A DNA stretch of 64,000 nucleotides from Candidatus Parcubacteria bacterium. GTDB taxonomy: Bacteria; Patescibacteriota; Minisyncoccia; Phycocordibacterales; PALSA-1337. Positions 3,133 through 52,100 of the stretch are shown piece after piece. The translations under genes were made by a program, and so were the position numbers. The stretch covers positions 8,454-72,453 of the forward strand of contig JBDLTF010000004.1 in assembly GCA_039799225.1 (NCBI GenBank), read 5' to 3'. Every line of letters begins with the position of its first letter. The first letter of the stretch is position 1. The notes below the pieces were generated by a model, which worked only from the letters and a program-made list of their open reading frames with translations, was not told the origin of the DNA and made no database searches.

Positions 3133-3170
3133 CCGCCGATACCATAGATATCGGCGGGGTTGAATATGGA
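3133..3170 (-). terminator. hairpin terminator for the 3174..3446 gene
   Basis: 10-bp stem cccgccgata/tatcggcggg. On the minus strand it is followed by a U-rich tract. Confidence 0.4.
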
Positions 3171-3173
3171 CTA

Positions 3174-3446
3174 TCAGCGCGGAAAAAGTTCGGCGATGAT
3201 ATCGGAAATGACTGGATAGGTATCCCTGTTCGCGAAGCGGGTCAAGCTATTCCCGATACTGCGACAATTTACCATGCCATAGCTGGCGAGCAAACTTCTG
3301 ACTCGGTTGCGAATCATCGGATCATCAGGATCAGAACAAAGATCCTTGAACGGCTCCGATTCGAAAAACGCATGTTTGCCTTCAGCGAAAGATGCTTCGG
3401 GTACATGCATATCCAACTCCAACTGGGCGGTTGTGGTTGCACTCAT
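3174..3446 (-). CDS. hypothetical protein (90 aa)
   Basis: ORF with its own downstream hairpin. No recognisable motif. Confidence 0.35.
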   Translation of the reverse strand: MSATTTAQLELDMHVPEASFAEGKHAFFESEPFKDLCSDPDDPMIRNRVRSLLASYGMVNCRSIGNSLTRFANRDTYPVISDIIAELFPR

Positions 3447-3828: not shown

Positions 3829-4803
3829 CTACAACGAGAAATTCTTGAGTGAGTAAATCTCCTCATTCTCTTCTTTGGCAGCCTCAGCAGGAGCACGATC
3901 ATCGACTGGTGCGGCGTCAGCAGCAGGAGCATCTGGCATCTGAACAGCCTCTTTCGAAACTGATGCTTCAGACTTCTGATTGTTCAATTTCTCAAGAAGA
4001 GTCCTGAGATCATCGGGACTGAAGAAATCAATCGTGACAGTACCTCCCTCCTTGGTTTTCTCGATACGCACGCGCGTGCCAAGAGTTTCGGTGAAGTTCT
4101 TCTCCATCTCAATCATCGTAGGGTCGAGATACTTGCCCTTATTGCGAATGCGCTCAGTGGCGACGCGGCGAGAAAGTGATTCTGCTTCACGGACAGTGAG
4201 CTTCTTGGACATGATCTCCTTGAAGAGCACAACCTGTTCATCAGGACGATCGGTCAACATCAAGAGTGGGCGAGTATGACCTTCTGAAATCTTACCTTCT
4301 TCGAGTGCAGTAATCATATCGTCTGGAAGAGCGAGGATACGCATACTGTTGGAAACATATTCACGGCTCTTACCCACCTTCTCAGCGATCTGAGCCTGCT
4401 TGAGTCCGAATTCTTTTGCGAGACGCTCGAATGAACGGGCACGGTCAACAGGATTGAGATCTTCGCGCTGGAGGTTCTCAATGATAGCCATCTCGAGCTT
4501 GAGCTGACTGTCCTGCTCTCCACTGCGGATGAGGACGGGTACCTGAGCGAGACCAGCGAGCTTGGATGCGCGGAGACGGCGCTCTCCTGAGACGAGCTCA
4601 TACTCGACGGTCATACCTCCTCCTTCATGGAACACTTCATTACGAGTCACGACAAGCGGCTGGAGCACGCCATACATGCGGATAGATTCTGACAAACTCT
4701 TGAGGGCTTCCTGGTCAAATTCGCGGCGCGGCTGATAAGGGTTGGGGCTCACCTTCTCGATCTCGACCCAGAAGATAGCATCGTTTACATAATTTGAAGA
4801 CAT
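3829..4803 (-). CDS. parB: ParB/Spo0J-family partition protein
   Basis: Conserved ParB N-domain (GERRLRASKLAG, VPVLIR), HTH region (QAQIAEKVGKSREYVSNSMRIL) and an acidic C-terminal tail. No parA is adjacent. Confidence 0.9.
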   Translation of the reverse strand: MSSNYVNDAIFWVEIEKVSPNPYQPRREFDQEALKSLSESIRMYGVLQPLVVTRNEVFHEGGGMTVEYELVSGERRLRASKLAGLAQVPVLIRSGEQDSQLKLEMAIIENLQREDLNPVDRARSFERLAKEFGLKQAQIAEKVGKSREYVSNSMRILALPDDMITALEEGKISEGHTRPLLMLTDRPDEQVVLFKEIMSKKLTVREAESLSRRVATERIRNKGKYLDPTMIEMEKNFTETLGTRVRIEKTKEGGTVTIDFFSPDDLRTLLEKLNNQKSEASVSKEAVQMPDAPAADAAPVDDRAPAEAAKEENEEIYSLKNFSL

Positions 4804-5199: not shown

Positions 5200-5910
5200 T
5201 CACCGCACCGCAATACGTCCGATGACATTGTCAATCTCAACTTGAAGCGGGGTGACGAGCCAAAGCTGGCGATTCACTTCCCTGACCAAAGATCCAACGA
5301 ACTCCTTGAGACCCCACAACATGAACCAACCAATGAAACGATCTCTCTCAAAGAGAGGCCTCAAAAACTCAGGTGTGATTTCGACCAACCGATTACTGTT
5401 TGGTATCCACATATAGTTTCCCGTATTCGCAATGACCACCATGGCACCGACGTACCCTTCGAGCCCGGGGATTATCGAAGGGGGGACCACTGGATTAAAT
5501 TCGCGAGGATAAAAACTTGCAAATACTTTGATTTCTTCGCGCAACACCCCTTCAGGAAGCTCGGGCTGAGAATCATTCCGAGCATCTACCAACTGAGCTT
5601 CTTCAAGGGTCTTCGTGGGTACACGAAGGTGGTGCTCACATTTTGAATTAACATGCCCGAGCGCCCGCATGACGATCTGAGCCAAAACCTCTGCAGGGAT
5701 TTCAGTCAACTTTACCATATCCTTGCCATAGATTACCGTCGCGAGACGATATGTCTCATCATCCTCGAATCGCTTCAAATCAATCCGTTGCGGATGCAGC
5801 TCCTGAGCTCGACGCAACGTCGCACTCAACCTGAGTGCTCTCGGTGAAAATTCACCTGTGCCTTTCTCTACACCTTCGGGAGGTTTCGTTTCTTGATTCA
5901 TAGTTTTCAA
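5200..5910 (-). CDS. hypothetical protein (236 aa)
   Basis: Longest ORF in this interval. Chosen over the antisense 5242..5646 ORF. No recognisable motif. Confidence 0.45.
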   Translation of the reverse strand: MKTMNQETKPPEGVEKGTGEFSPRALRLSATLRRAQELHPQRIDLKRFEDDETYRLATVIYGKDMVKLTEIPAEVLAQIVMRALGHVNSKCEHHLRVPTKTLEEAQLVDARNDSQPELPEGVLREEIKVFASFYPREFNPVVPPSIIPGLEGYVGAMVVIANTGNYMWIPNSNRLVEITPEFLRPLFERDRFIGWFMLWGLKEFVGSLVREVNRQLWLVTPLQVEIDNVIGRIAVR

Positions 5911-14425: not shown

Positions 14426-14508
14426 GCGCCGTTCGGATAGCGGCTATTCCAGGGGACTGTAAATCCCCGGCCCTATGGGCATCGCTGGTTCGAGTCCAGC
14501 ACGGCGCA
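14426..14508 (+). tRNA. tRNA-Tyr(GTA): tRNA-Tyr(GTA), type II
   Basis: Acceptor gcgccgt/acggcgc, anticodon loop cuGUAaa, long variable arm, T-arm gctgg-ttcgagt-ccagc. Confidence 0.85.
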
Positions 14509-14525
14509 CAAACACAATGTAAACG

Positions 14526-20037: not shown

Positions 20038-20757
20038 CTACCACCCCTTAGCCTCCAACGCCTTCTCTGCTGCTTGCTGCTCTGCTTCCTGCTTGGACAT
20101 ACCCGTTCCTGCTGCGACTTGAACATCCCTAAGGAATACACCGAGAGTGAATTTCTTGTCATGATCAGGACCAACTTCTTTGAGTGTCTTATAGGTCGGC
20201 GTGATACCCATCTTCTCCTGTGCCTTCTCCTGGAAGCGACTCTTGGCATCGATCCAGAGCTTATCTTTCACAATGATATCGATGTCGATGTAATTCAAGA
20301 TCTGATCTGAAATGAACTGCGCAGCTGCATGATATCCCTGATCCATATAGATGGCACCGATGAGAGCCTCGACTGCATTTGCGAGAATGACCGAACGGGC
20401 ACGACCAGTATCTTTGGCCTCACCCTTCGAGAGGAGCATGAATTCATTGAGACCAATATGTTCAGCGACCTTCGTGAGACTGACGGTGTTCACGATAGCT
20501 GAACGATATGCGGTGAGCTCACCTTCTGCCTTGTGCGGATATTTCAAGAAGAGGAATCCGGTGACCGCCAACTCCAAAACAGCGTCTCCGAGAAATTCGA
20601 GGCGCTCATTGTGTTCCATGCCAGTACCCTTGTTCTCATTGAGGTACGAGCGATGTGTACATGCTGCACGGAGCAAGTTTACATCGTTGAATGAAACGCT
20701 GATCTTTTTCGAGAGTTTTTCGAGATTCTGTTGCATGTTACTTCTCCTCACTAACAA
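20038..20757 (-). CDS. rnc: ribonuclease III
   Basis: RNase III signature ERLEFLGDAVLE and a C-terminal dsRBD. The likely start is the internal Met near 20736, adjacent to the stop of the upstream gene. Confidence 0.9.
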   Translation of the reverse strand: MLVRRSNMQQNLEKLSKKISVSFNDVNLLRAACTHRSYLNENKGTGMEHNERLEFLGDAVLELAVTGFLFLKYPHKAEGELTAYRSAIVNTVSLTKVAEHIGLNEFMLLSKGEAKDTGRARSVILANAVEALIGAIYMDQGYHAAAQFISDQILNYIDIDIIVKDKLWIDAKSRFQEKAQEKMGITPTYKTLKEVGPDHDKKFTLGVFLRDVQVAAGTGMSKQEAEQQAAEKALEAKGW

Positions 20758-21643
20758 TCGTCACTGCTTTGGTAACTATCGGGAGGATATCATTATAGAA
20801 ATTGAGTTCGAGAATGTCGGCGAGCTTGAACCACTTAGCATCATCAAGTCCTGGCTTCTTCGCAAGAGCGAGGTCAGTAAACTTCGACTCTGCGAGATAG
20901 TAGTGAACCTGTTTCCTGATCTTACCAATCTCAGGATCGTTGGCAATATATTCATTCTGACCGAGGTCTTCCTTAATCTTCACATCGAGACCGATTTCTT
21001 CTTTGACTTTGGCGACGGTGCCATCCTTTGGATCCATATCCTGAGGGATTTTTCCCTTGGAAAGGGTCCAGTGGCCGAAAATGTCGTGCACGAAGGCAAA
21101 GAAGATATCAGACTCATGGCGCGCATATACGATGGCGCCTCCGAGATGCTGGACAGGCATCTGTTCATACGGGACCTCGGCAGGTTTCTTCTTCTTGGGA
21201 GCCTGTGGAGCGTCCTTACCTGGCTCACCAAGCTCCTTGTAGACCGCACCGAGCACACCGTTTACGAACCTACCCGATGTTTCGCCGCCGAATGTCTTGG
21301 CGAGCTCGATAGCTTCGTTGATAGCAACCTTGGCAGGAACCTCATCACGGTCAGAGAAGATGAGTTCGAAGAGACCGAGGCGGAGAACATTACGATCAAC
21401 CGGAGAAATCTTCTCGAGTGGCCAGTCAGGAGCGGCCTTGGTGATGATATCGTTGAGATCCTGCTTCTTGGCGATAATACCCTTCAAAAGGGCTTCTATG
21501 AATGAGACATCAGTCACACCTGGAGCAAATTCCTTGGCATTACGAGTAACAATGGCGGAAACGTTTTCGTCATGCTGTCCACGAGCATCCCACTCGAAGA
21601 GTGATTGGAGAACTACAGACCTTGAGAGGTGTCTATTTGCCAT
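20738..21643 (-). CDS. nusB: transcription antitermination factor NusB fused to a C-terminal Nudix-like domain
   Basis: NusB blocks (LQSLFEWD, NVLRLGLFEL, AINEAIELAKTFGGETSGRFVNGVLG). A Lys/Pro linker leads to a Nudix-fold-like region whose Nudix box (GKIPQDMDPKDGTVAKVKEEIGL) is only partly conserved. Confidence 0.7.
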   Translation of the reverse strand: MANRHLSRSVVLQSLFEWDARGQHDENVSAIVTRNAKEFAPGVTDVSFIEALLKGIIAKKQDLNDIITKAAPDWPLEKISPVDRNVLRLGLFELIFSDRDEVPAKVAINEAIELAKTFGGETSGRFVNGVLGAVYKELGEPGKDAPQAPKKKKPAEVPYEQMPVQHLGGAIVYARHESDIFFAFVHDIFGHWTLSKGKIPQDMDPKDGTVAKVKEEIGLDVKIKEDLGQNEYIANDPEIGKIRKQVHYYLAESKFTDLALAKKPGLDDAKWFKLADILELNFYNDILPIVTKAVTIVSEEK

Positions 21644-36404: not shown

Positions 36405-38468
36405 ATGAACAATATCAATCAACCAAACAATCAGAAGCCTGCTGAACAACCAGCAGGACAAGGCGCAGGACCTTCCCCTCGTCCACGCTTCCAATATCGT
36501 GGTGGTCACCGTCATGGAGGTCATACGCGCACACTCCGACCTGATGGAGCACGCCCTCCTCATCAGGGTAAACCTTCTGATGGACGTCCTGCACCTGCAG
36601 GCTCTCCACATCGCGTTGTGCTTGGACGTGGCGCACACAAACCGCTACCTACTGGCAGCAAGCCGGGGGTCAAACACGTCGCTGGAGCACGCATGCAGAT
36701 CGTCCGTCCTGATGCCGCAAAACCTATGCGCCGTGGACCAGCATCCAAGCCACTCATCCGTCGCGAAGGAGACAGAATTCCTGCTCTTGCAGCCGACAGT
36801 ATCCGTATCATTCCACTCGGCGGTGTTGAAGAAATCGGTAAGAACATGACTGCTATCGAGTATGGCGACGACATCATCGTGGTCGACATCGGTATCCAGT
36901 TCACCAACGAGAACACTCCTGGTGTCGATTTCATCTTGCCCAACACTCATTACCTCGAGGAACGCCAGGATCGCGTACGCGCCGTTCTCATCACTCACGG
37001 CCACCTCGACCATATCGGTGCTATACCATATATCATGCCTCGTATCGGCAATCCGCCGCTCTATACACGCCTCCTTACTTCCGTTTTGATACAGAAGCGC
37101 CAAGAAGAATTCCCTCATGTGCCTAAGCTCGATATTCAGGTTGTTGAGAAAAACAGCACCATCACTGTCGGTAAGCTCAAGGTTAAGTTCTTCTCAGTCA
37201 CCCACACCATTCCTGACGCTATGGGTCTCATCATCGAGACTCCATACGGTTCTATCGTACACACCGGCGACCTCAAGCTCGACCATATGGATGGTATCGT
37301 TTCCGACGAAGAGACTGCTGAATACGATCGTGCCTTCGCCAATGAGAAGGTGCTCATGCTCATGGCAGACTCGACCAACGTTGAGAACCCTGGCTTCTCA
37401 ATGCCTGAGAAGACCGTGCACAAGAACCTTGAGATGATCATTCAGAACATGCAGGGCCGCCTCATTATCGCTACGTTCTCGTCACTCCTCGAACGTCTTC
37501 TCAAGATTACCGAGTATGCTGAGAAATATGGCAAGAAAGTCATCGTCGAAGGACGCAGTCTCAAACAGAACATTGAGATTTGTAAGAGCCTCGGTCTCGT
37601 GAAGGCAAAGAAGGAGACTTTCATCTCTGTCGATGATATCGATAGCTATCCTCCAGAACGTATCGTTATTCTTTCGACCGGAGCTCAGGCCAACGACTTC
37701 TCCGCTCTCGTGCGCATGTCCCAGAAGAACCATGCCAAGATCAAGCTCACTCCACGTGACACTGTCGTCCTCTCGTCATCAGTCGTCCCAGGAAATGAGC
37801 GCGCCGTTCAGACCCTCAAAGACAACCTGTCTCGTCAGGGTGTAAAGATTCTCCACTATCGTATTGCCGACGTTCACTCGTCAGGTCATGCGAATCGTGA
37901 TGAGACCGCTTGGATTCACCGCAAGATCAAGCCGAAGTTCTTCATGCCACTCCACGGATACCACTACATGCTCCGTGCGCACTGTGACATCGCCAAGGAT
38001 ACCAACGGCCTCGCTGAGAGCGACGTAGTCATCCCAGACAATGGTTCAGTCATCGAGATACAGAGTGCGGGAACAAAGATAGTGAAGCTCAAAGAGAAGG
38101 CTCCATCAGGTCTCGTGCTTGTGGATGGATTCTCAGTCGGTGATGTGCAGGAAGTGGTCATCCGTGACCGCCAGGCACTCGCTCAGGATGGTATCTTCAT
38201 CATCTTCGGTATCGTCAACGCCCAGACTGGTAAGCTCCGCAAGTCCCCTGATATCATTTCCCGCGGATTCGTCTATCTCCGTGAATCACAGGAACTCCTC
38301 CATGAGGTACGTATCCTCATCAAGGAAACCGTCGAGAAGTCTTCCCAAGGCCAGAATCCAATCAATATGGATGTGGTCAAGGAAAACATTACCGACGCTG
38401 TGTCCCGATTCCTCATGCAGCAGACTGCGAAGAGACCGATGGTCATCCCTGTGTTGCTTACTATATAG
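36405..38468 (+). CDS. rnj: ribonuclease J with ~125-aa basic Pro/Gly/His/Arg-rich N-terminal extension
   Basis: Metallo-beta-lactamase HxHxDH motif (THGHLDHIG), beta-CASP and C-terminal domain matching RNase J. The low-complexity N-terminus comes before the core starting at IRIIPLGGVEEIG. Confidence 0.85.
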   Translation: MNNINQPNNQKPAEQPAGQGAGPSPRPRFQYRGGHRHGGHTRTLRPDGARPPHQGKPSDGRPAPAGSPHRVVLGRGAHKPLPTGSKPGVKHVAGARMQIVRPDAAKPMRRGPASKPLIRREGDRIPALAADSIRIIPLGGVEEIGKNMTAIEYGDDIIVVDIGIQFTNENTPGVDFILPNTHYLEERQDRVRAVLITHGHLDHIGAIPYIMPRIGNPPLYTRLLTSVLIQKRQEEFPHVPKLDIQVVEKNSTITVGKLKVKFFSVTHTIPDAMGLIIETPYGSIVHTGDLKLDHMDGIVSDEETAEYDRAFANEKVLMLMADSTNVENPGFSMPEKTVHKNLEMIIQNMQGRLIIATFSSLLERLLKITEYAEKYGKKVIVEGRSLKQNIEICKSLGLVKAKKETFISVDDIDSYPPERIVILSTGAQANDFSALVRMSQKNHAKIKLTPRDTVVLSSSVVPGNERAVQTLKDNLSRQGVKILHYRIADVHSSGHANRDETAWIHRKIKPKFFMPLHGYHYMLRAHCDIAKDTNGLAESDVVIPDNGSVIEIQSAGTKIVKLKEKAPSGLVLVDGFSVGDVQEVVIRDRQALAQDGIFIIFGIVNAQTGKLRKSPDIISRGFVYLRESQELLHEVRILIKETVEKSSQGQNPINMDVVKENITDAVSRFLMQQTAKRPMVIPVLLTI

Positions 38469-38484
38469 TTCCCTAACAAATAAA

Positions 38485-38515
38485 AAACTCCCTTCGAAGG
38501 GAGTTTTTTATTTGT
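38485..38515. terminator. bidirectional terminator
   Basis: aaaaaactccc-ttcg-aagggag followed by a T-run. Confidence 0.65.
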
Positions 38516-38520
38516 AATCC

Positions 38521-39975
38521 CTACAATCCCTGCAATGGATTTATCATAGTACGCTGAATCTTCTCTGCATTCGCCATTGCGCTAGTACCGTAGTTCAAAA
38601 TCCATCCTGAAGCTGGACATGCTTTGCCGGAGAAGTATTTACATGCCGCATTGCGTTCAGCCGTATAGGTCTGCCCTCCCGCTCCATTATCTTTTAGAAG
38701 CATCGATGCTGCCATAAATGCATGTTCTGGACTCCATGGATTGGGCATAGATGATATTCCAAGGGCAGCTCTCAAACGATTTACATACAGCACCCAGGTA
38801 GAAGGTATAAACTGAGCTGGACCCATAGCACCACCCCAACCAATTGGCGCACCACTATTATCATATACTGGCTGCCAACACGAAACACGAGTCGTATTTG
38901 GATCTCCATTGAGAGCCTCCACAATATTCAAGAATGGAGGCACATCACGCGTGGGATGCATGACGCGAGACTGAATACTTCCTGTATTTGCCCCACGACC
39001 ATTTCCTGTCGTTGGGTCTGTCATGTAGCACGATCCGATCTGTTTACCAAAAGTTGCATCACTACCCAAACTTGATTCCTGGGCGAATATACCGAGAAGG
39101 AATGCTGCTCTAACACCTGTCTTTCCCTCTGCCTCAAGTGCATATCGATATGCATCGCCGAATGGAATCGCTTGCCCTCCACCAGCAAGAGGAAAGAGTG
39201 CTGCACGTATCTGTGCGGCTTGTGCGGCCTTTTGTGCTATCAATGTCGAGTACTCCTTCTCATTCAACTTACTGATTGTCAGAAGGTTCTGCTTCTCTTT
39301 CTCATCAGCTTGAATATTCTTCTGCTCCTGCTGGATGGCATAGCGTGCATCCGTCTCTGTATTGCGACGCTTCTCAAGACTGCTTTTCTCTGCTTGAGTT
39401 TCAGATTTGTCCGACCTGATTTGCTCGAATGTAGACTTGAGACTCTCTTGGACAGAAGCGAGTGTGTCGAGGTCCTTCAAAGCTCCAGAGACACTCAACT
39501 GTGACAAGAGCACCTCTGGCAGGCTGTATGAGCCCGTCTCATTGGTTTTGCGCATGATGACTGCCAAGGTATCTTTGCCACGCTCAATACGTCCATCGAG
39601 CGTATTGATATGACTCTCTTTGCTCTTGATATCCTTTCCAAGACTCTCGATAAGGAGATTCTTGGCCTTGATATTGAGCTGAGCAACCTTGATCTTGGCA
39701 TCAAGAACGGCAATATCTCTCTGGAGTGACGAGCTCTGTGCTTGAGTAGTCAACAGAGCTGCCTCAGCCTGCTTCTTTTCAGCCTCGACCTGTACAAGAT
39801 CCTTCTCGAGCTTAGCTTTCTGCGCAGGGGTTAATTCTTGGGCCAATACGGAAGGAATCGTCAGGGGAATGAACAGAGAAAAAACTGGGGAAAGCATAGC
39901 TATCCCGACAATAAGAAAAACAGTATATTTGGGCATGTATCGGACAGTATTCATGTAGTTCTTATAGTATAGCAA
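38521..39975 (-). CDS. cell-wall hydrolase: N-terminal coiled coil plus C-terminal lytic transglycosylase (MltB/SLT-like) domain
   Basis: Signal/TM, long Lys/Glu/Gln-rich coiled coil, then FLLGIFAQESSLG...GAMGPAQFIPSTW, typical of the lytic transglycosylase fold. Confidence 0.6.
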   Translation of the reverse strand: MLYYKNYMNTVRYMPKYTVFLIVGIAMLSPVFSLFIPLTIPSVLAQELTPAQKAKLEKDLVQVEAEKKQAEAALLTTQAQSSSLQRDIAVLDAKIKVAQLNIKAKNLLIESLGKDIKSKESHINTLDGRIERGKDTLAVIMRKTNETGSYSLPEVLLSQLSVSGALKDLDTLASVQESLKSTFEQIRSDKSETQAEKSSLEKRRNTETDARYAIQQEQKNIQADEKEKQNLLTISKLNEKEYSTLIAQKAAQAAQIRAALFPLAGGGQAIPFGDAYRYALEAEGKTGVRAAFLLGIFAQESSLGSDATFGKQIGSCYMTDPTTGNGRGANTGSIQSRVMHPTRDVPPFLNIVEALNGDPNTTRVSCWQPVYDNSGAPIGWGGAMGPAQFIPSTWVLYVNRLRAALGISSMPNPWSPEHAFMAASMLLKDNGAGGQTYTAERNAACKYFSGKACPASGWILNYGTSAMANAEKIQRTMINPLQGL

Positions 39976-42873: not shown

Positions 42874-42951
42874 AGGGCAATTATAGCATATTAGGAAATA
42901 GGAGCCCGTCCCCACCTGACGAGTAGACACAATTCATGATAAAATAATCCT

Positions 42952-43950
42952 ATGTTCCACAAGAAGCTCGACCTCATCGCCATTGGCGACATAACCACCG
43001 ACGCGTTTATTCGCCTCAAGGAAGCAGAAGTTCACTGCAAGATAGACCATGGAGCATGCGAGATCTGCATGCCATTCGGTGACAAGATTCCCTTCGAATA
43101 TGCAAAAGTTGTCAAAGGTGTTGGTAATGCCGCCAATGCCGCTGTCGCTGGCGCACGCCTCGGACTCAATTCCGCCCTCATAGCCAACATCGGTGACGAC
43201 CAGAATGGCCGTGAATGTAGACTCGAGCTCCAGAAGAATGATGTTATCGAAACATATGTGAAGACGAACAAGGGTAAAGCGACGAACTACCACTTCGTGC
43301 TCTGGTACGGCGATGAACGTACTATCCTCGTCAATCACGTGGATTATGATTACGAGCTCCCTAAGAAACTTCCTGCACCCAAGTGGCTCTACCTCACATC
43401 GATGGCTTCGAACACATTCCCGTACCACATGGCCATCGCTGACTATATAGAAGCAAACCCTGATACACGTCTCGCATTCCAGCCAGGAACATTCCAGATG
43501 AAGCTCGGATTCGATGAGCTCAAGCGTATCTACGCACGCACTGATATCTTCATCGTCAACGTCGAGGAAGCTCAGCGTATGCTCAAAACCGATAACAGAG
43601 ACGTCAAAGAGCTGATGAAAAAGCTCCATAGCTATGGCCCTAAGCTCATTCTCGTCACCGATGGACCGAAGGGTGCCTACATGTTCGATGGTGATCACTA
43701 TTACTTCATGCCGATATATCCGGATCCGAAGCCTCCGATAGAGCGCACTGGCTGTGGAGATGCATTTGCTTCAACATTCGTCTGTGCACTCGCAAAAGGA
43801 AAATCACCCCTTGAGGCTCTTACCTACGCTCCAGTCAATCCGATGTCAGTCGCGCAGTTCGTCGGTGCACAAGAAGGTCTCCTCACTGATCAGCAGATCG
43901 AATGGTGGCTCAAGCAAGCCCCAAACGACTATCGTGCTCGCGAAATCTAG
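42952..43950 (+). CDS. PfkB-family carbohydrate kinase (ribokinase-like)
   Basis: PfkB signature 2 (RTGCGDAFASTF) and the N-terminal GG-type motif. 332 aa. Confidence 0.8.
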   Translation: MFHKKLDLIAIGDITTDAFIRLKEAEVHCKIDHGACEICMPFGDKIPFEYAKVVKGVGNAANAAVAGARLGLNSALIANIGDDQNGRECRLELQKNDVIETYVKTNKGKATNYHFVLWYGDERTILVNHVDYDYELPKKLPAPKWLYLTSMASNTFPYHMAIADYIEANPDTRLAFQPGTFQMKLGFDELKRIYARTDIFIVNVEEAQRMLKTDNRDVKELMKKLHSYGPKLILVTDGPKGAYMFDGDHYYFMPIYPDPKPPIERTGCGDAFASTFVCALAKGKSPLEALTYAPVNPMSVAQFVGAQEGLLTDQQIEWWLKQAPNDYRAREI

Positions 43951-45134
43951 CTTCGTGACTTTTTGAATTCTTCCCAAGTACCATCAACAATGGCTTTTCG
44001 TGCGTCTTTCGCGAGATGCACCAGGAAGTAGAGATTGTGAATCGATACGAGCGTCGCAGCAAACATTTCCTTGGCCCTGAAAAGGTGTGCGAGATACGCC
44101 TTTGTGTAATTTGTACAGGTATAACAACCACATCCTGCATCTATCGGTGCAAAATCTGTCTTGAATTCTGAATTGAGGAGATTGATTGTTGATTTTCCCT
44201 TACTTCGTACGTAAGCAGAACCGTTACGTGCAATCCTCGTCGGTGCAACACAGTCGAAGGTATCGATACCATTCTCAATACCGAGTATAAGATCCTCTGG
44301 TGCACCGATGCCAAGCAAGTGACGTGGCTTACCCTCGGGTAATTCATCGACGACCCAACCGACCGCGATAGCGATATCTTCTTTGTCGAACGAACCACCG
44401 ATACCGAAACCATCGAAGTCCATACCGCCAATCGTACGTGCGCTTTCTTTTCTCAAATCTTCATGCCGACCACCTTGGACAATGCCGAACAATGCGCGAT
44501 TCCCCTCTTTATTCATTTTTTTGTGAGCCTCGAGACTTCTACCTGCCCAACGATGCGTGCGATCCATAGCTTCTCTCTGATATTCATATGAAGCCTGCGG
44601 TGAAGTACATTCGTCAAAAGCGAAAATGATATCTGCAGCGATTGCATGCTGTATTTCAATAGATCTCTCTGGTGTAAAGAAATGTGTGCTTCCATCAAGC
44701 ACTGATCTAAACTCGACACCGTCTTCAGTAACCTTGGCAAAATTCTCGCCATGGGTCTCTTCTGCTTCTTTTTCAACTTCGCGACCACCGCGCGCACCAA
44801 TCTTGGACGCAGTCTTGTTGAACGCCGCACCAAGTGAGAATGCCTGGAAACCTCCGGAATCAGTAAATGTAGGTCCTGGCCAATTCATGAACTTCCCGAG
44901 TCCACCAGCTTTCGTAAGTATTTCAGTCCCTGGTTGGAGATAGAGATGATAGGTATTGGCGAGAATGGCGTCTGCACCGAGCGTTTTGACCTGCTCAGGA
45001 GCGAGTGACTTCACCGTCGCCTTGGTACCTACAGGTATGAATGCTGGTGTCTCAATAGCGCCATGAGGAGTCTGGATGGTGCCTGCGCGGCCACGACCGT
45101 TGGGGAGCTTCGCGTGAATATCGAATTTGAGCAT
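43947..45134 (-). CDS. tgt: queuine tRNA-ribosyltransferase
   Basis: MLKFDIHAKLPNGRGRAGTIQTPHGAIETPAFIPVGT is the typical TGT N-terminus, plus the C-terminal zinc site (CGCYTC...H). The ORF-track start (45188, GTG) is an artefact of the inverted repeat. Confidence 0.9.
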   Translation of the reverse strand: MLKFDIHAKLPNGRGRAGTIQTPHGAIETPAFIPVGTKATVKSLAPEQVKTLGADAILANTYHLYLQPGTEILTKAGGLGKFMNWPGPTFTDSGGFQAFSLGAAFNKTASKIGARGGREVEKEAEETHGENFAKVTEDGVEFRSVLDGSTHFFTPERSIEIQHAIAADIIFAFDECTSPQASYEYQREAMDRTHRWAGRSLEAHKKMNKEGNRALFGIVQGGRHEDLRKESARTIGGMDFDGFGIGGSFDKEDIAIAVGWVVDELPEGKPRHLLGIGAPEDLILGIENGIDTFDCVAPTRIARNGSAYVRSKGKSTINLLNSEFKTDFAPIDAGCGCYTCTNYTKAYLAHLFRAKEMFAATLVSIHNLYFLVHLAKDARKAIVDGTWEEFKKSRS

Positions 45135-45164
45135 GTGAGTCAAGAATACGGAATTATCGTGGAG

Positions 45165-45292
45165 AGCGCAAGCAGCACAGCGCGGCACGTGTGTTTTGTA
45201 TGTGCCATGTTTCGTACTGAAAACTAAAATTTATTTAACCAAATAAGCATGGCACATACAAAACACACGTGCCGCGCTGTGCTGCTTGCGCT
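45165..45292. repeat. perfect 45-bp inverted repeat (arms 45165..45209 and 45248..45292) with 38-bp AT-rich spacer, in the tgt/LOG divergent promoter region
   Basis: agcgcaagcagcacagcgcggcacgtgtgttttgtatgtgccatg and its exact reverse complement. Explains why both flanking ORF-track entries begin MPRCAACAL. Confidence 0.9.
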
Positions 45293-45352
45293 TTGTGCGC
45301 TCGGAGGTCACAAGTGGCATACATCCTTACTTGGAGATATAATAGGACGACT

Positions 45353-46045
45353 ATGCATAATGAACACACCGGACCCCTGTCGCGCAAAGACATTCACGCC
45401 GACACGACCAAACGCCACCTCGATCAGATTAACAAGGAGTTCAAGGACGGTTTCGATTTCTTGAGGAAGTATCCAAAATCAGTCACTATCTACGGATCTG
45501 CACGCACCAAGCATGGTAGCCATGAATGGAAGCAGGCTGAAGAGCTTGGACACAAGATCGCCAAAGAACTCAAATACGCCGTCATCACTGGCGGAGGACC
45601 AGGCACCATGGAGGCTGCTCACAAAGGAACCAAAGAAGCCGGCGGACAATCTGTTGCACTCGGTATTGAATTGCCACATGAAGGTAACACAAATCCATAT
45701 GCTACAGACCGTCTTCAATTCACGTATTTCTTCTCAAGGAAGGCGATGTTGAACTTCGCCGCAGAAGCGTATGTATTCTTCCCCGGAGGTTACGGAACTT
45801 TCGACGAGCTCTTCAGCACAATGACTCTCATCCAGACACGTAAGATTCCATCAGTACCGGTCATTCTTGTCGGATCGAAATTCTGGAATGGTCTCTCTGA
45901 CTTCATCATCAAGAATATGCTCCAGCAGCAAGAAGCAATCGCTGACTATGATATGGATATATTCAAGATCACTGACGACCTTGACCAGGTCATCGAGATC
46001 ATCCGCACAGCGCCAGTCAGTGAGTGGTGGAGAAACATCAACTAA
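45353..46045 (+). CDS. LOG-family (TIGR00730 / Rossmann-fold nucleotide-binding) protein
   Basis: VTIYGSARTK...ITGGGPGTMEAA...FPGGYGTFDELFS match the LOG family. Start set at MHNEHTG. Confidence 0.8.
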   Translation: MHNEHTGPLSRKDIHADTTKRHLDQINKEFKDGFDFLRKYPKSVTIYGSARTKHGSHEWKQAEELGHKIAKELKYAVITGGGPGTMEAAHKGTKEAGGQSVALGIELPHEGNTNPYATDRLQFTYFFSRKAMLNFAAEAYVFFPGGYGTFDELFSTMTLIQTRKIPSVPVILVGSKFWNGLSDFIIKNMLQQQEAIADYDMDIFKITDDLDQVIEIIRTAPVSEWWRNIN

Positions 46046-46065
46046 TATAATTGAGTTAGGTACGA

Positions 46066-46098
46066 AAAACACCGCAGTTCCCTGCGGTGTTTTTTGAT
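46066..46098. terminator. bidirectional terminator
   Basis: aaaaacaccgcag-ttccc-tgcggtgtttttt. Confidence 0.6.
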
Positions 46099-46129
46099 CA
46101 AGCTATTATTTCCTAGAGTCTGAAATACG

Positions 46130-49100
46130 TTAGATAAGATAATTCTCAACAACCCAACCTATTATTCCGTTGAAAGTAACATACCACCAATAATAACCTC
46201 CGGCTGAAACACCATTTGAGGCATTTGCAACAATTGTACCTAAGGTACCATCAACAACGGTGCCCAAAACAGTAGCTGTTGCCGACGGAGCAGAGCGGAT
46301 ATTTAAGAATGTTCCTGTTCCAGAAACTCGAACCTGTTGACCAGTAGTGAAAGCACCTTGGCTTTGGGATGACGAGGTTGATGGAACAGTGACCATGGAG
46401 ACGGTAGCTGGGGCTGTAGCACCACTGACGATAGATCCGTAATCATTCGGATAGCATGTTGTTGCGCTGAATGTGCCACTATTATTCAGACTACGTGATT
46501 CCCAACAAAGCTGGGCTGGAGACTTATTAACCTTACCTGCAGCGTCGCCAGTGCCACCAGAAACATCAGGACCAATAAGTGGCCATGGAACTGAAACTGG
46601 GAACCAGGAAGGTTTGGAACTATAAATCATAGAAGCAGGAATTGTCTGGTTTGATGGTACCGCTACATCAGAGGAAACCTCAGAAGCGACGAAACGTGAG
46701 GCATCATTGAAGTAGTCATAGTTACCCCAACGAACCAAGGTAGAGCTAACCTTAGGATCAGGATAGCCGCTAGGAATTGCGTAGTTATCGTACGCAGTAG
46801 TACTACAATTGCTGATGTTTGGGTATCCGAACTGATAAACACCAGGGGCGTTACAGCCAGTAGCATATGCTGCAGGATTCTGTTGTGAAGACCCGAGCAC
46901 GTTACCAACGATGTTGTAGTAGTAGCCGAAGCGCTTGATCCAGACAGCATCTCCCCTTGCAGTCGAACCATTCGGATTGAAGCCGGTGAAATAGTTGCGC
47001 AACAGAGTTCCTTGACCCGCACCACCGAAGTAACCATCCATACCCCACATCTCACCAGTGTTTCCTTCGTAAAGGTTATAAGCATTATACGGAGCATGGC
47101 CATCATCAAAGGTCCAAGTCACCATATATGAACCACCTCCCCAATCGACTGATCCATAAACATAGTTGTAGCCAATATAGAGACCACTGCTACTATTATT
47201 AACTTCAATTGCGGGGAAGTTCTTATTGAAGATATTATTCTCAACCCTCGCATTGCTATTGGCACCGTACGGACCACCGTAGAAGTTGAGACCGCTGTTA
47301 TTAGGTCCTGATGAGCCTTCGTGGATATATGAATCACGAACCTCAAGGTTAACAGTGCCGAGAATAGTGAAGTGGTAGCCGACGCTGCGACCTGATTCGA
47401 TACCCTTCATCCAACAGCTATCACAGTACTGAATGTCCGTGTTGCCGTTTGTAGTGTTGTGTTCAAGCTTGAGATCTTCAATACCGACATTCTTTGTAGT
47501 GCTCAGGAATGTATGTTTGATTTTCGGAGTGCCTTGAGAGAAATCAAAGATGAGCGGATTGCGAACAGTGATGGTATTCCCGCTAATCCCGGTAATGACA
47601 TTAACTTGAGTGAGTGAACGGCCAGCATCGTGACTAGCAACAAAGGTAGGATCATCGAGACGATCGAGCTCGAGCATCAATCCGACAGTGAGACCTGCAG
47701 TCGATGCGACAGTGAAGGACGAAGATCCTTTGGCACCACCTCCGGTAAGTGCTACGCCACTTGTCGAATTGTATCCGCTACCAATCCTAAGAATGTTACC
47801 ACCTGACAGAATAGTCTTGTCTGCTCCCGCACCACGGAGAGTAACATTACTGTTGTAAATCAGGATCTTGTCAGACAAGTTGTATGTGCCGGCATTGAGA
47901 AAGACGACGCCATTGTTACATGAGCTGATAGCACTGTTGATTGTTGCTGCGGTTGCCCCAGGATTGAGTGTGGCACAAATAGTAGTACGGTTTGGGATGC
48001 CTCCAGGAACACCGGTGTATTTCCAGTCGATGGTACGGTTAGCAGCTTGAAGAGAACTCAGAATATTAGTGCCGACAACAATCGTCACCGTCACACTCGC
48101 ACTCTTGCTCGTCGATACATTTCCTGCGGCATCCTTAGCCCAAGCATAGAGAGTCTTGGAGCCTGCGGATGCAAAGGTGTATGTAGTAGGAGCAGCTGAT
48201 GTCCAACCTGTAGCTGATGCTGTTGGTGCTGATGATGACTCGGTAATGAGGTATCCTGTTACACCGACTGCGTCTGTAGCAGTGAGAGTAGTGATAGGAA
48301 CTGTGAGAGATGATGAAGTTGAAGGGATGGTGAAGACTGAGACGACTGGGGCGGTGGTGTCGGAAGTTGGGATGGTGCCACCATAGTAGCAGGCGGACGA
48401 GTCGAATATCCCTCCTCCTGCGAGATTTTGGTTCTCGAAGCATTCTTGTGCAGGAATCTTTCCATTCAAGAGCGTCCCCGGATTGCTTGCGCTCGGACCA
48501 TACGCTGGCCAAGCAAGTCCACTTCTCCACCATGAAGGACGAGATGCTAGATAAAGCGAGTTAGGAATGTTCTTTGATGCATCTATTGTGTCCGGACGCT
48601 CAGCAACGTTCCATCTCACCGTGTTGGTCACAGAATCCCAATTACCCCACCTGAGCAGAGTATTCAAGGTTTGAATGTCATAATTCGATGTCGAAGGCTG
48701 TGCTGCATTCCAATATCCAATCGAATAAATCACATTATCACTTCCTAGATTGGTATTGTTAAACTCATATGTGCTCGTCTTTCCCGTGGTCCCCAGCACA
48801 TTACCGACGACAGTAGTGTTTAGGTGTTGTGCCCAGACATACAGCGCAATCCTGTAGGCAAAAACTGATGTATTTGTCGAATCATATCCATAGAGCCTAT
48901 TCCTCAATATAACCTCGTTACCTCCAGAACCCCAGCCGTTGTCCAACGAGATCGAGGTAAGAGCATTCCCTTCGTACAGGTTCGAATATGTGTGTCCGAC
49001 ATGAGGCTGTGCTCCAGCAGCCATAACGTTAGGCTCCGACTGCGGGTCGATGTAGTTATACGAGATCACTGAGCCGCTAACTGGAGTAGTCGGAACGATC

Positions 49101-52100
49101 TGCCATCCATTATTCATAATATTGTTCTCGATAAGATACGCCGAGCCTGAACCGAGCTCTATACCATAATGAGTAGGTCCTGCGCCGACAGAATCATGAA
49201 TATAACTGTCTCGAATCTCTCCTCTGTACGAGTACCAGCCGAAGTTCACAGCAGACCTCACGTGTCCGATTGTTTCGACGCCTTTTACCCAGCAGTTTGT
49301 ACAGAAATTGAAGGCAATGAGATCGCTCGCGGTGCCATTCTGCCCGTCAACTTTCAAGTTCTCGATGCCGGCATATTCCATATTCCCATTTGTCCAGGTG
49401 AATACTTGTGGAGACAGACTCGACTTGAACGTGAAGTAGAGCGGATTGTCCAAAGTGATAGTGTTCCCATTTATAGCTTTGATCTTCACGACCTGGAATT
49501 GTATCCTCGTGTTTCCACCATAGAATGATGTGCCATTCCTAACATTTGATTGAGTGCCATATGAGCCTGTCGGACTGACCTTCAAAGAAGTATCGTTCAA
49601 CTGATCGATGACAATCGTCTGATTCACTTTGAAAGCGGCCGGGACACTCGCGAGAGTAATGTTTGTACTTCCCTTCGTATATCCTCCCACAACATCGACG
49701 ACGGACAGAGAGCCTCCATCGCCACCTCCGTACGGCGAAAACTTTATAGAACTACCAACTTTGAGAATTGTCGATGCTCCTTCTCCTCGCAACACTACTG
49801 GTCGTGTGATGGATAGTCCATTTGAAAATGTATATGTTCCAGCAGGGATACGTATCACCGTCCTCAGAGGACAGTTACTTATCGCTGTCTGAATCGATGC
49901 CGCGTTTCCTGCGGTGACCGTATTCGTGGTGCAGTTAGCTAGGTTTGGTATTCCTTTGGTTCCATCTGATCCGATCACTCCCGCTTGCGTCCAATCGGTC
50001 GTACGATCGGCAGGTATTGCTTCAGCGCTTCCTGTCACAACCGTCACTGTCACACTTGCACTCTTGCTCGTCGATACATTTCCTGCAGTATCCTTAGCCC
50101 AAGCATAGAGAGTCTTGGAACCTGCAGATGTGAAGGTATATGTAGTAGGAGCAGCTGATGTCCAACCTGTAGCTGATGCTGTTGGTGCTGATGATGACTC
50201 GGTAATGAGGTATCCTGTTACACCGACTGCGTCTGTAGCAGTGAGAGTAGTGATAGGAACTGTGAGAGATGATGAAGTTGAAGGGATGGTGAAGACTGAG
50301 ACGACTGGGGCGGTGGTGTCGATGACCGTACCCGCCTGTGTCGTAGCCGATGCTCCTGCAGAGACTGCAGAGAGGTTACCTGCAGCGTCATATGCGCGAA
50401 CAGTGTAGGTATATGAGGTGCTTGGTGACAAACCAGTAGTGTTCTGGAAGGTTGTAGCTGCTGGGGTGATATTTGCGATCTGAACACCAGCTCTGAAGAC
50501 CTGATATCCTGTTACACCGACGTTGTCAGATGAAGCGCTCCATGAAAGATTGATTTGTGATGAAGAGACTGCGGTGGCGGTGAGGTTTGCGGGAATGGTA
50601 GGTGCGCTGGTGTCAGTGACAACAGTAGTGTTGAAGATTGCATTGACGCTTGTGTTTGCATTCAAAGTGAACGAACAAGTTGTTGCAGTACCAGTACATG
50701 CACCTGACCATCCTGCGAAGGTTGATCCAGCTGAAGCTGCAGCAGTCAATGTGACTGCCTGACCTGCGTTCCCTGTTGAAGTACAGGTGGTTCCGCAGTT
50801 GATTGAACCAGTCGAGGTGACTGTACCTGTGCCGGTTCCTGACTTGGTGACGGAGACGGTGTATGAAGTCTGAGTAGGTGGAGTGACCGAGCTATAAAGT
50901 GAGCTAACTTCAGCTGCGCTCAATGCACCATTGTATACGCGAACTTCATCAATCTTACCCTTGAAATATTCCGATGAGCCGTTCCATGAGCCTATGAGGA
51001 GGTTCGACGCAGTGTTGGTGAATGCACCAGCACCTGATGTGACAAGAGCTCCATCTATATATAGACGGTTAGTGGTTCCATCATATGTCTGGACGACGTG
51101 TTTCCAGACGCCTGAGGCGATAGGAGTTTGTATGACATTGGACCATGTTGAACCATTACCGACACTGGCGTACACTGTATTATTATTTCTAATTTCGAGA
51201 CCGAAAGAGTACTCTTTCATGATTATAGAACCCCATTCTCCTGCCTGAGTTGCGGAGAGATTGATCCATGCACTGAGAGAGAACTTCGCTGAACCAACGT
51301 TTCCAGCATTCAAATATGCACTGGTACCATTGAGTGTAAGACCATTGCCTGCTACACCCGTTGTCCATGTAGGACCACCAACGAGGGTGGCGGTACCAGA
51401 GTTTCCTGATGAATCAGTAGCGGTTGTACCTGAACTCTGGTTGAGGTTCCAGTTACGAAGAAGAGCTGTACCTGCTGGTGCTGCAGCGACTGTTACCGGA
51501 ACAGCGCTCGAAGTAGTAACTGCCCCGTCATTGTCGGTAGCACGTGCAGTGATGCTATATGTTCCTGCGGCTACACCAGTCCATGTATATACATACGGGA
51601 ATGAAGCGTCTGCACCGATAAGTGTTGATCCGCTGTAGAATTCAACATTAGTAATTGATCCATCAGAGTCAGTTGCAGTGACAGGAATGTAAAGAGCTGC
51701 TGCAGGAGCCGTTCCAGAGACAGATATAGTGCTTAGAGTGACCGCAGGAGCAACATTCGCCAGGGTCGTAACCGTCCTTCCAGATGTCTGTGCTGAATGA
51801 TTCCCTGCGGCGTCATATGCGTCGACGGTATATGTATATGATGTTCCCTTCGTGAGGCCGCTGTCATTGAATGAAGTATTAGTAACTGCTCTTATCGGTG
51901 TTCCATTGCGGAATACACGATATCCGGTGACTGCAACGTTATCCGTTGAGGCTGCCCACGAAAGAGTGAGTGATGTCTGTGTGACATTTATAACGTTCAT
52001 GTACGTTGGTATCGTAGGAGCGGTGACATCTGGAGGAGTTACTGTTGTAAATGTGTAGTTACCTGATGTAGTGAGGTTTCCTGCTGCATCACGAGACAAT

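Follow-up and report, generated by a model that had tools for sequence, protein, structure and literature searches.

Why should a bacterial chromosome segment that packs its genes extremely tightly keep a long, perfect palindrome between two of them? The question is raised by a 64,000-nucleotide stretch of DNA from a Candidatus Parcubacteria bacterium (contig JBDLTF010000004.1, positions 8,454 to 72,453, called the window in the following), a member of the Candidate Phyla Radiation (CPR). In this window the start codons of the divergent FBA (minus strand) and PfkB (plus strand) genes are only 21 nt apart (42931-42951), and the 3' ends of pfkB and tgt overlap by 4 nt (43947-43950). With such packing, the 218 nt that separate tgt, the gene for tRNA-guanine transglycosylase, from a divergently oriented gene of the LOG family are unusual, and it is in this gap that the palindrome is found. 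In the present work, we compare the locus with its counterparts in related genomes. We will show that the two arms of the palindrome evolve in concert at the DNA level. For the element as a whole, an explanation that has, in our judgement, about an even chance of being correct is that of a lineage-specific resident DNA palindrome that originated in an inverted duplication, owes its lasting symmetry to template switching, is prone to deletion, and acts at most as a spacer between promoters.

The element comprises 128 bp, with two arms of 45 nt that are exact reverse complements of each other and an AT-rich spacer of 38 nt between them (Table 1). A preliminary description of this DNA had reported the same anatomy and had considered a chance origin very unlikely; the exact coordinates are confirmed, and chance is excluded by shuffling. 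If one mismatch is allowed, the pairing reaches 48 nt (45165-45212 with 45245-45292) and 32 nt are left unpaired. The pairing of the arms is strictly Watson-Crick, with zero G-U pairs in 45 bp. The calculated folding energy of the strand is −103 kcal/mol if it is treated as RNA and −70 kcal/mol if treated as DNA, with z about −15, and none of 200 shuffles folds equally well. The palindrome is by a wide margin the longest inverted repeat of the window, the runner-up having arms of 20 nt. A smaller hairpin inside each arm, which a consensus scan scores as terminator-like, is probably incidental.

The copy number was assessed in the 64 kb of the source genome that the window covers and in public collections that do not hold this genome. 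As the preliminary description had proposed, we searched for further copies of the 45-mer, and neither it nor an internal 20-mer recurs in the window with up to three mismatches; none of 100 shuffles gave two matches. A low-stringency BLAST search with the whole element yields no further match in the window either, and a BLAST search against phages and plasmids matched nothing. A 21-mer from the inner arm has no exact match in GTDB genomes, JGI metagenomes or IMG/VR, the source genome being absent from all three. No direct repeat flanks the element (...GTGGAG, element, TTGTGC...).

Conservation at the orthologous locus, another check that had been proposed, proved to be the informative one. 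Homologous palindromes, all starting with AGCGCAAG, are present at the same site in three other species, represented by the loci L009 (JAGOQK010000004), L088 (JGI Ga0558718_29093) and L094. Given as arm, spacer and arm, the element of the window (45/38/45 nt) and that of L009 (43/36/43 nt) are perfect, the one of L088 (43/41/43 nt) has three mismatches, and the shorter one of L094 (26/15/26 nt) has two to three; L002, L003 and L087 contain remnants of 12/11/12 nt. In simple neighbour-joining trees of two proteins, LOG and Tgt, the window, the group of L002, L004 and L087, and the pair of L009 and L088 form one clade, from which it follows that the long form is ancestral to that clade.

When the arms of the three long forms are aligned, 25 of the 50 columns vary between species, nine of them containing gaps, and 21 of the 25 have an exact mirror counterpart in the other arm in every species. 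Between the window and L009, six substitutions and 12 gap columns are counted, yet within either species the arms match each other without any mismatch. These columns were counted on the alignment of the arms; the alignment of the whole element by MAFFT is asymmetric, and counting by structure pairs was therefore not used. The arms evolve thus in concert, and the mirrored indels, together with the strict Watson-Crick symmetry, speak for copying between the arms at the DNA level rather than for selection on an RNA helix. Sequence conservation as such is limited in the long forms to the outer 10 nt and to a block of about 15 nt, with the sequences AGCGCAAGCA and GCGCnGCAyGTGTGT, while the inner 20 nt or so vary freely but stay complementary. 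The spacer is barely conserved: it has a weak similarity to the spacer of L009 in the same orientation (a score reached by 2 of 500 shuffles) and none to that of L088, and it does not behave as a functional core.

The remnants show how the element is lost. L002 and L004 belong to one species, as 1208 of 1215 nt are identical in tgt and all 228 nt at the 5' end of LOG. In L002, 12 nt of the left arm are fused to 23 nt of the right arm; in L004, 30 nt of the left arm are followed directly by the final 8 nt of the right one. CACA and TGTG microhomologies mark the junctions. We also considered one inversion as the cause of the difference between the two, but rejected it, since two independent deletions in a full-length palindrome, each taking the centre and most of one arm, fit the sequences better. 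The signature of template switching, i.e. mirrored changes that include indels, together with central deletions flanked by microhomology, is hence found at this locus. Template switching has been reported to render imperfect inverted repeats "perfect or more perfect", including the removal of a 4-bp indel (PMC7202029), and a process of this kind may well have copied one arm from the other here.

We now turn our attention to the position of the palindrome relative to the two genes. The left arm ends 30 nt from the tgt start codon and the right arm 60 nt from that of LOG, and the genes are identified by their Pfam matches; the preliminary description, which had placed a long, non-random palindrome at about these distances in the divergent tgt/LOG promoter region, is borne out in this respect. 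The promoters were assigned on the basis of conservation across relatives. A TAnnnT hexamer is located 5-9 nt ahead of the tgt start codon in 28 of 29 distinct upstream sequences, and a TATAAT-like hexamer 5-9 nt ahead of the LOG start codon in all 19 distinct relatives, most commonly at 9 nt. Further upstream of tgt, a TTGCTn or TTGCGC block is found at −35 distance in relatives with and without the palindrome and can be taken as the probable −35 element. As TTGCTn is found equally far upstream in relatives that lack the palindrome, the outer arm, which contains this block in the window, would be ancestral promoter sequence. On the LOG side, the conserved block TTGTGCGCTC adjoins the right arm, and in L002 it is 16 nt ahead of the LOG TATAAT, that is, at a −35-like position.

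In many relatives only 15-60 nt separate the two start codons, which leaves no workable alternative to a leaderless mode of transcription for either gene, and we suggest that tgt and LOG are both leaderless also in the window. Both promoters point outward from the palindrome, which would then be part of neither mRNA and lie in an untranscribed gap. The idea of an attenuating structure common to both mRNAs, which had been listed among the candidates, falls with this.

The scenario that we favour can be formulated as follows. In the ancestor of a small clade of Paceibacteria, the palindrome would have started from a small hairpin next to the tgt −35 element and would have grown by inverted duplication or expansion, such that the left arm has the −35 hexamer at its outer end today. 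It would be maintained by intramolecular copying, in which one arm serves as the template for the other when the DNA is replicated, by quasipalindrome template switching or short-tract gene conversion; substitutions and indels appear in both arms together as a result. Deletions at short direct repeats take out the centre and most of one arm. As to the effect on the cell, the core promoters would be about 130 bp further apart than in relatives, and two polymerases would then no longer compete for one gap of 25-80 bp. This spacing, exerted at the level of the DNA, is the most probable cellular effect, with a possible benefit as spacer or insulator. Hairpin extrusion may in addition absorb negative supercoils.

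It is important to point out what weighs against this scenario. An insert of 120-130 bp has been retained in three species-level lineages with very compact genomes, which hints at a selected role, since retention of this kind exceeds pure neutrality. The two arm blocks are conserved in sequence beyond what pairing calls for, and a protein-binding site would fit them too. The template-switch mechanism is read from the pattern that it is expected to leave. Finally, a spacer of 38 nt disfavours the extrusion of a cruciform from duplex DNA on physical-chemical grounds, which makes the supercoil sink a weak part of the model.

The first two of these points lead directly to the alternative that the palindrome is a selected regulatory DNA site, either an operator for a dimeric or tetrameric regulator or for a cruciform-binding protein, or a supercoil-sensitive cruciform, through which tgt and LOG would be co-regulated. 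The element is located between the two −35 regions and overlaps that of tgt. The outer 10 nt and the 15-nt block are also largely conserved in L094, and the deletion forms as well as the outgroup L010 still have the block once. Co-regulation is also suggested by the divergent pair itself, which is maintained in about 45 related loci with Tgt identities as low as about 60%. On the other hand, arms of 45 nt placed 38 nt apart are far bigger than known operators, and the inner arms keep an exact symmetry despite their free variation between species, which a binding site does not need. One species has, furthermore, lost the centre twice, and the Pfam-scanned open reading frames (ORFs) near the palindrome include no DNA-binding regulator. 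The long spacer speaks against a cruciform also here. We regard a regulatory site accordingly as unlikely, if still worth serious consideration; the operator for a dimeric regulator named in the preliminary description fits poorly as regards arm length and symmetry, and what stands of it is the conservation of the outer 10 nt and of the 15-nt block.

The maintained pairing also suggests a possible functional connection between the two genes. LOG enzymes are nucleotide N-glycosidases, and it is conceivable that LOG releases queuine or a preQ1-type base for salvage by Tgt. In L089 (1059-2336) and L090 (1060-2337), tgt alone is inverted relative to its neighbours, giving pfkB +, tgt +, LOG + instead of the pfkB +, tgt −, LOG + of the window. 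A separate candidate, autoregulation by Tgt through UGU-containing sub-hairpins of the arms, was dropped, as the arm is outside the tgt mRNA.

Another possibility is that a mobile palindromic element, i.e. a miniature inverted-repeat transposable element (MITE) or an element like those of the Correia or Rickettsia palindromic element (RPE) type, transposed into the promoter gap. The size and the terminal inverted repeats suit the class (45-nt perfect arms in 128 nt, MITEs having about 50-500 bp), and Correia elements, which are located ahead of genes, contain promoters and are capable of inversion (PMC10969869). Relatives do have multi-copy palindromic elements. One of them, which we call family A, has as its conserved part a core of about 70 nt (…CACGGATATTT…AATTCCTCGnGCTCGC…) and, closing this core, a perfect stem that varies in sequence from copy to copy; the family is found in intergenic gaps (L018, L025 twice, L073) and inside tgt (L021, L023). 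A three-way junction is the predicted fold of the core; Rfam contains no match to the element, and a scan of viral contigs for the core gave nothing. L073 has in addition two copies of another element inside tgt. The palindrome of the window, however, is a single copy in these 64 kb, at low stringency as well, it is absent as an exact inner-arm 21-mer from the three collections named above, which lack the source genome, and a target-site duplication was not found. The outer arm is ancestral promoter sequence and not imported, the element is inherited vertically at one site in a monophyletic clade with the shorter forms as deletion derivatives, and no transposase is present among the Pfam-scanned ORFs of the window. 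A MITE or a repetitive extragenic palindromic (REP) sequence, both of which had been suggested earlier, thus finds no support in the sequence available, and we consider a transposed element improbable.

The gap between tgt and LOG is nevertheless a place where palindromes recur. Among 45 divergent LOG-tgt loci, spacers of up to 91 nt fold without peculiarity, except in L050, where the entire gap of 27 nt including both start codons is a perfect palindrome; tgt and LOG share a perfectly mirrored promoter in this case. In the range of 94-218 nt, almost every spacer is rich in hairpins, with z between −2.4 and −13.9, the exceptions being L004 and L022. The hairpin-rich spacers fall into at least five unrelated sequence families, namely that of the window, L008, L005-L007, L018 with L025, and L019. 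In L008, a palindrome of 27+27 nt with zero spacer contains a mirrored version of an 18-nt hairpin unit of which L095 has one copy, and a comparison of the two reads as a direct example of the birth of a palindrome by inverted duplication.

Similar structures are present outside the gap. A scan of 617 kb of loci, together with the window, for perfect inverted repeats (arms of 16 nt or longer, spacers of 30-130 nt) gives about 21, for an expectation by chance of about 0.01. Seven of these are in frame within the coding sequence of tgt, at variable surface-loop positions. The perfect or near-perfect inserts in tgt (Table 1) have arms of 17-42 nt and spacers of 36-94 nt, and in the one that is orthologous in L023, L015 and L029 the stem is preserved by mirrored changes although the encoded amino acids differ. 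The element of the window has no significant sequence similarity to the coding palindromes or to the other elements of the relatives, and in the literature that could be searched we found no description of such palindromic inserts for CPR bacteria. One may therefore speculate that Paceibacteria harbour undescribed hairpin-forming insertion elements, an analogue of the RPEs, that colonise promoter gaps and surface loops of proteins, with variable perfect stems and, in some families, possibly a conserved three-way-junction core. The palindrome between tgt and LOG would then be a retained member, co-opted as an insulator or coupler that acts at the DNA level between two leaderless, divergent promoters and responds to supercoiling. 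We hold this to be doubtful, but if true it would explain why at least five lineages have fixed unrelated palindromes in this one gap.

Two further explanations are highly unlikely. In the first, the element is an inverton, whose arms flip the spacer; the latter would carry a −10 box for which the inner end of either arm serves as −35, boosting LOG and tgt in turn. A promoter-like match does extend over the inner left arm and the spacer, with a geometry that is preserved after the flip, and inversion has apparently taken place in another palindromic element: L015 (815-924) and L029 (785-890) are collinear loci that share 78% of their nucleotides over 2.1 kb, but the central 76 nt of the inverted repeat are 88% identical on the opposite strand, and the loop must thus have been inverted in one lineage. 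However, the spacers of the window and L009 are similar in the same orientation, the promoter match reaches only 9/12 positions with 0.6 expected by chance, and neither an invertase nor a recombinase is found among the Pfam-scanned ORFs of the window. A segment of 38 bp is also much shorter than known invertible ones, and the difference between L002 and L004 is better described by two deletions, as discussed above.

In the second, the palindrome is transcribed and functions as RNA, in the form of a long-hairpin small RNA, a target of RNase III or a shared attenuator. The stability of the hairpin and the compensatory changes between species could be read in this way. Against it, both core promoters are outside the palindrome and point away from it, the absence of G-U pairs and the mirrored indels indicate copying at the DNA level, and no T-run follows the full hairpin. 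In Rfam 15, the window contains five tRNAs only at gathering score and no match to the palindrome; a permissive scan of 44900-45500 gives generic miRNA-hairpin matches below threshold, and eight relatives give no hit.

The case that the palindrome is an assembly artefact, a palindromic misjoin of the kind that long palindromes can provoke in de Bruijn assemblers, has practically no probability left: the contig L001 from Logan, assembled from an unrelated run (SRR30127145) and encoding an identical LOG protein, does break inside the right arm, but exactly 30 nt into it, which is k−1 for the assumed k of 31 and as expected of a true inverted repeat, the synteny with dozens of relatives covers the sequence on either side, and the homologous palindromes of L009, L088 and L094 come from independent assemblies of other projects.

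An attachment or origin-like site had also been proposed. The cumulative GC skew has its minimum at 44000-50000 of the window, close to the palindrome, which prompted us to consider a replication origin. This was rejected: the nearest DnaA-like 9-mers are more than 4 kb away from the palindrome and their count is below the shuffle mean, there is no dnaA among the Pfam-scanned ORFs, and parB (3829-4803) is 40 kb distant. The turn of the skew may reflect the composition of two giant minus-strand genes. The same ORFs include no integrase, and no tRNA is located within 13 kb of the palindrome, so that an attachment site finds no support either. A parS-like reading of the CACGTG motif was discarded by eye, since L009 and L088 have CATGTG at this position.

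Table 1. Positions of the palindrome, its flanking genes and promoter elements in the window, and of palindromic inserts in related loci (locus handle before the colon).
Feature	Position	Strand	Remarks
tgt (tRNA-guanine transglycosylase)	43947-45134	−	PF01702, E = 2.5e-135; P0001 / MEN9913001.1
tgt −10 hexamer TATTCT	45143-45148	−	8 nt before ATG
Left arm, 45 nt	45165-45209		exact reverse complement of 45248-45292; homologous to arms of L009, L088, L094
tgt −35 hexamer TTGCGC (putative)	45166-45171	−	nt 2-7 of left arm; 17 nt upstream of −10
Sub-hairpin GGCAC...GTGCC within left arm	45184-45206	+	mirrored at 45251-45273 (−)
Weak promoter-like match GTGCCA-17-TAAAAT	45202-45230	+	inner left arm and spacer; 9/12 consensus; 0.6 expected per region by chance
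AT-rich spacer, 38 nt	45210-45247		outer 3+3 nt pair with one mismatch
Right arm, 45 nt	45248-45292		final 30 nt = end of independent Logan contig L001
Conserved block TTGTGCGCTC	45293-45302	+	immediately 3' of right arm; same in window, L002, L004, L087, L088; one change in L009
LOG core promoter GTGGCA-18-TATAAT	45314-45343	+	10/12 consensus match; −10 ends 9 nt before ATG
LOG / TIGR00730-family gene	45353-46045	+	PF03641 and PF18306; TIGR00730 name from database sources
Insert in tgt	L050:2529-2648		
Insert in tgt	L023:3622-3746		orthologous in L015, L029
Insert in tgt	L060:3355-3440		
Insert in tgt	L067:3345-3425		
Insert in tgt	L069:2178-2313		
Inserts in tgt	L073:2834-2917 and 3168-3253		
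Insert in tgt	L086:3711-3785		
Insert in tgt; family A copy	L021:3284-3374		
Family A copy	L018:2847-2965		
Family A copies	L025:2807-2967 and 5648-5760		
Family A copy	L073:2405-2447		
Family A copy	L023:3339-3373		

The window is otherwise an ordinary CPR chromosome segment, with genes for TopA, ParB, MiaA, ClpB, SMC, NusB, RNase J, L25, FBA, PfkB and two giant surface proteins; the palindrome has tgt, LOG, PfkB, FBA and one of the giant surface proteins as neighbours. The Tgt protein is identical to that of a Candidatus Parcubacteria metagenome-assembled genome (accession in Table 1). The second longest inverted repeat, at 38476-38515, is a perfect palindrome of 20+20 nt with zero spacer (ACAAATAAAAAACTCCCTTC / GAAGGGAGTTTTTTATTTGT), located between the convergent genes for RNase J (36405-38468, +) and an unannotated protein (38521-39975, −), and it looks like a bidirectional intrinsic terminator. 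Elsewhere, a single ORF at 20738-21643 (−) combines NusB and NUDIX domains and overlaps an ORF of 384 aa on the opposite strand (20351-21505) that has no Pfam match. At 14426-14509, a tRNA-Tyr (GTA) is called by ARAGORN and unreported by the tRNA model of Rfam at gathering score.

The palindrome has a practical consequence for annotation. The identical, spurious GTG-initiated extensions on both strands that the preliminary description had pointed out do exist (ORFs 43947-45188, −, and 45269-46045, +), and database proteins of relatives are mis-extended in the same manner, e.g. P0002 (404 aa), P0005 (430 aa) and P0121 (257 aa), with false N-terminal extensions of 9-52 residues. The arms generate thus false N-termini for both genes in public entries. 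On a more general level, nearly every expansion of the spacer in the tgt-LOG gap is palindromic, which indicates a possible route by which compact CPR genomes gain non-coding DNA. If the palindrome turned out to be selected, we would be dealing with a new type of element, one that acts on the DNA level in between the promoters of leaderless genes.

Finally, it is instructive to compare the palindrome with known systems. An intrinsic terminator or attenuator differs from it in several respects, as the palindrome is upstream of both −35 hexamers, the −10 boxes are 8-9 nt before the start codons, and there is no T-run. With dyad-symmetric operators it shares a dyad symmetry between, and overlapping, the −35 regions of divergent promoters; unlike in these, the arms are several times the length of a half-site and 38 nt apart, the symmetry is kept without conservation of sequence, and no regulator gene is adjacent. 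The Correia / NEMIS elements of Neisseria and promoter-proximal MITEs (PMC10969869) are likewise palindromic, 100-200 bp long and located just upstream of genes; the ends of the Correia / NEMIS class can supply promoter hexamers, and inversion as well as processing by RNase III have been reported for it (PMC10969869). The Correia elements are, however, present in many copies with conserved terminal inverted repeats and target duplications, whereas the palindrome considered here is a single copy in the available sequence, lacks a duplication and occupies one orthologous site. The RPEs (PMC10969869) occur in a reduced genome as inserts of palindromic structure with a length of about 100-150 bp, and the in-frame palindromes in tgt of the relatives resemble them; the RPEs form defined multi-copy families that are mostly in frame in ORFs, while the element of the window lies between genes, is single-copy and has no sequence in common with the inserts found in coding regions. 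In terms of sequence change, the palindrome resembles the lacZ quasipalindrome reporters of E. coli (PMC7202029), in which imperfections of an inverted repeat are erased by copying from arm to arm, just as the substitutions and indels are mirrored and the arms near-perfect here. The reporter cases concern short engineered or hotspot repeats and single mutational steps, and the present one a natural palindrome with 45-bp arms followed across several species, where the mechanism is deduced. Arm-to-arm correction has otherwise been studied mainly with engineered reporters, and the tgt-LOG gap thus offers a natural example of it, in the form of a multi-species record of the birth of a palindrome, its evolution by mirrored indels and its decay by deletion.

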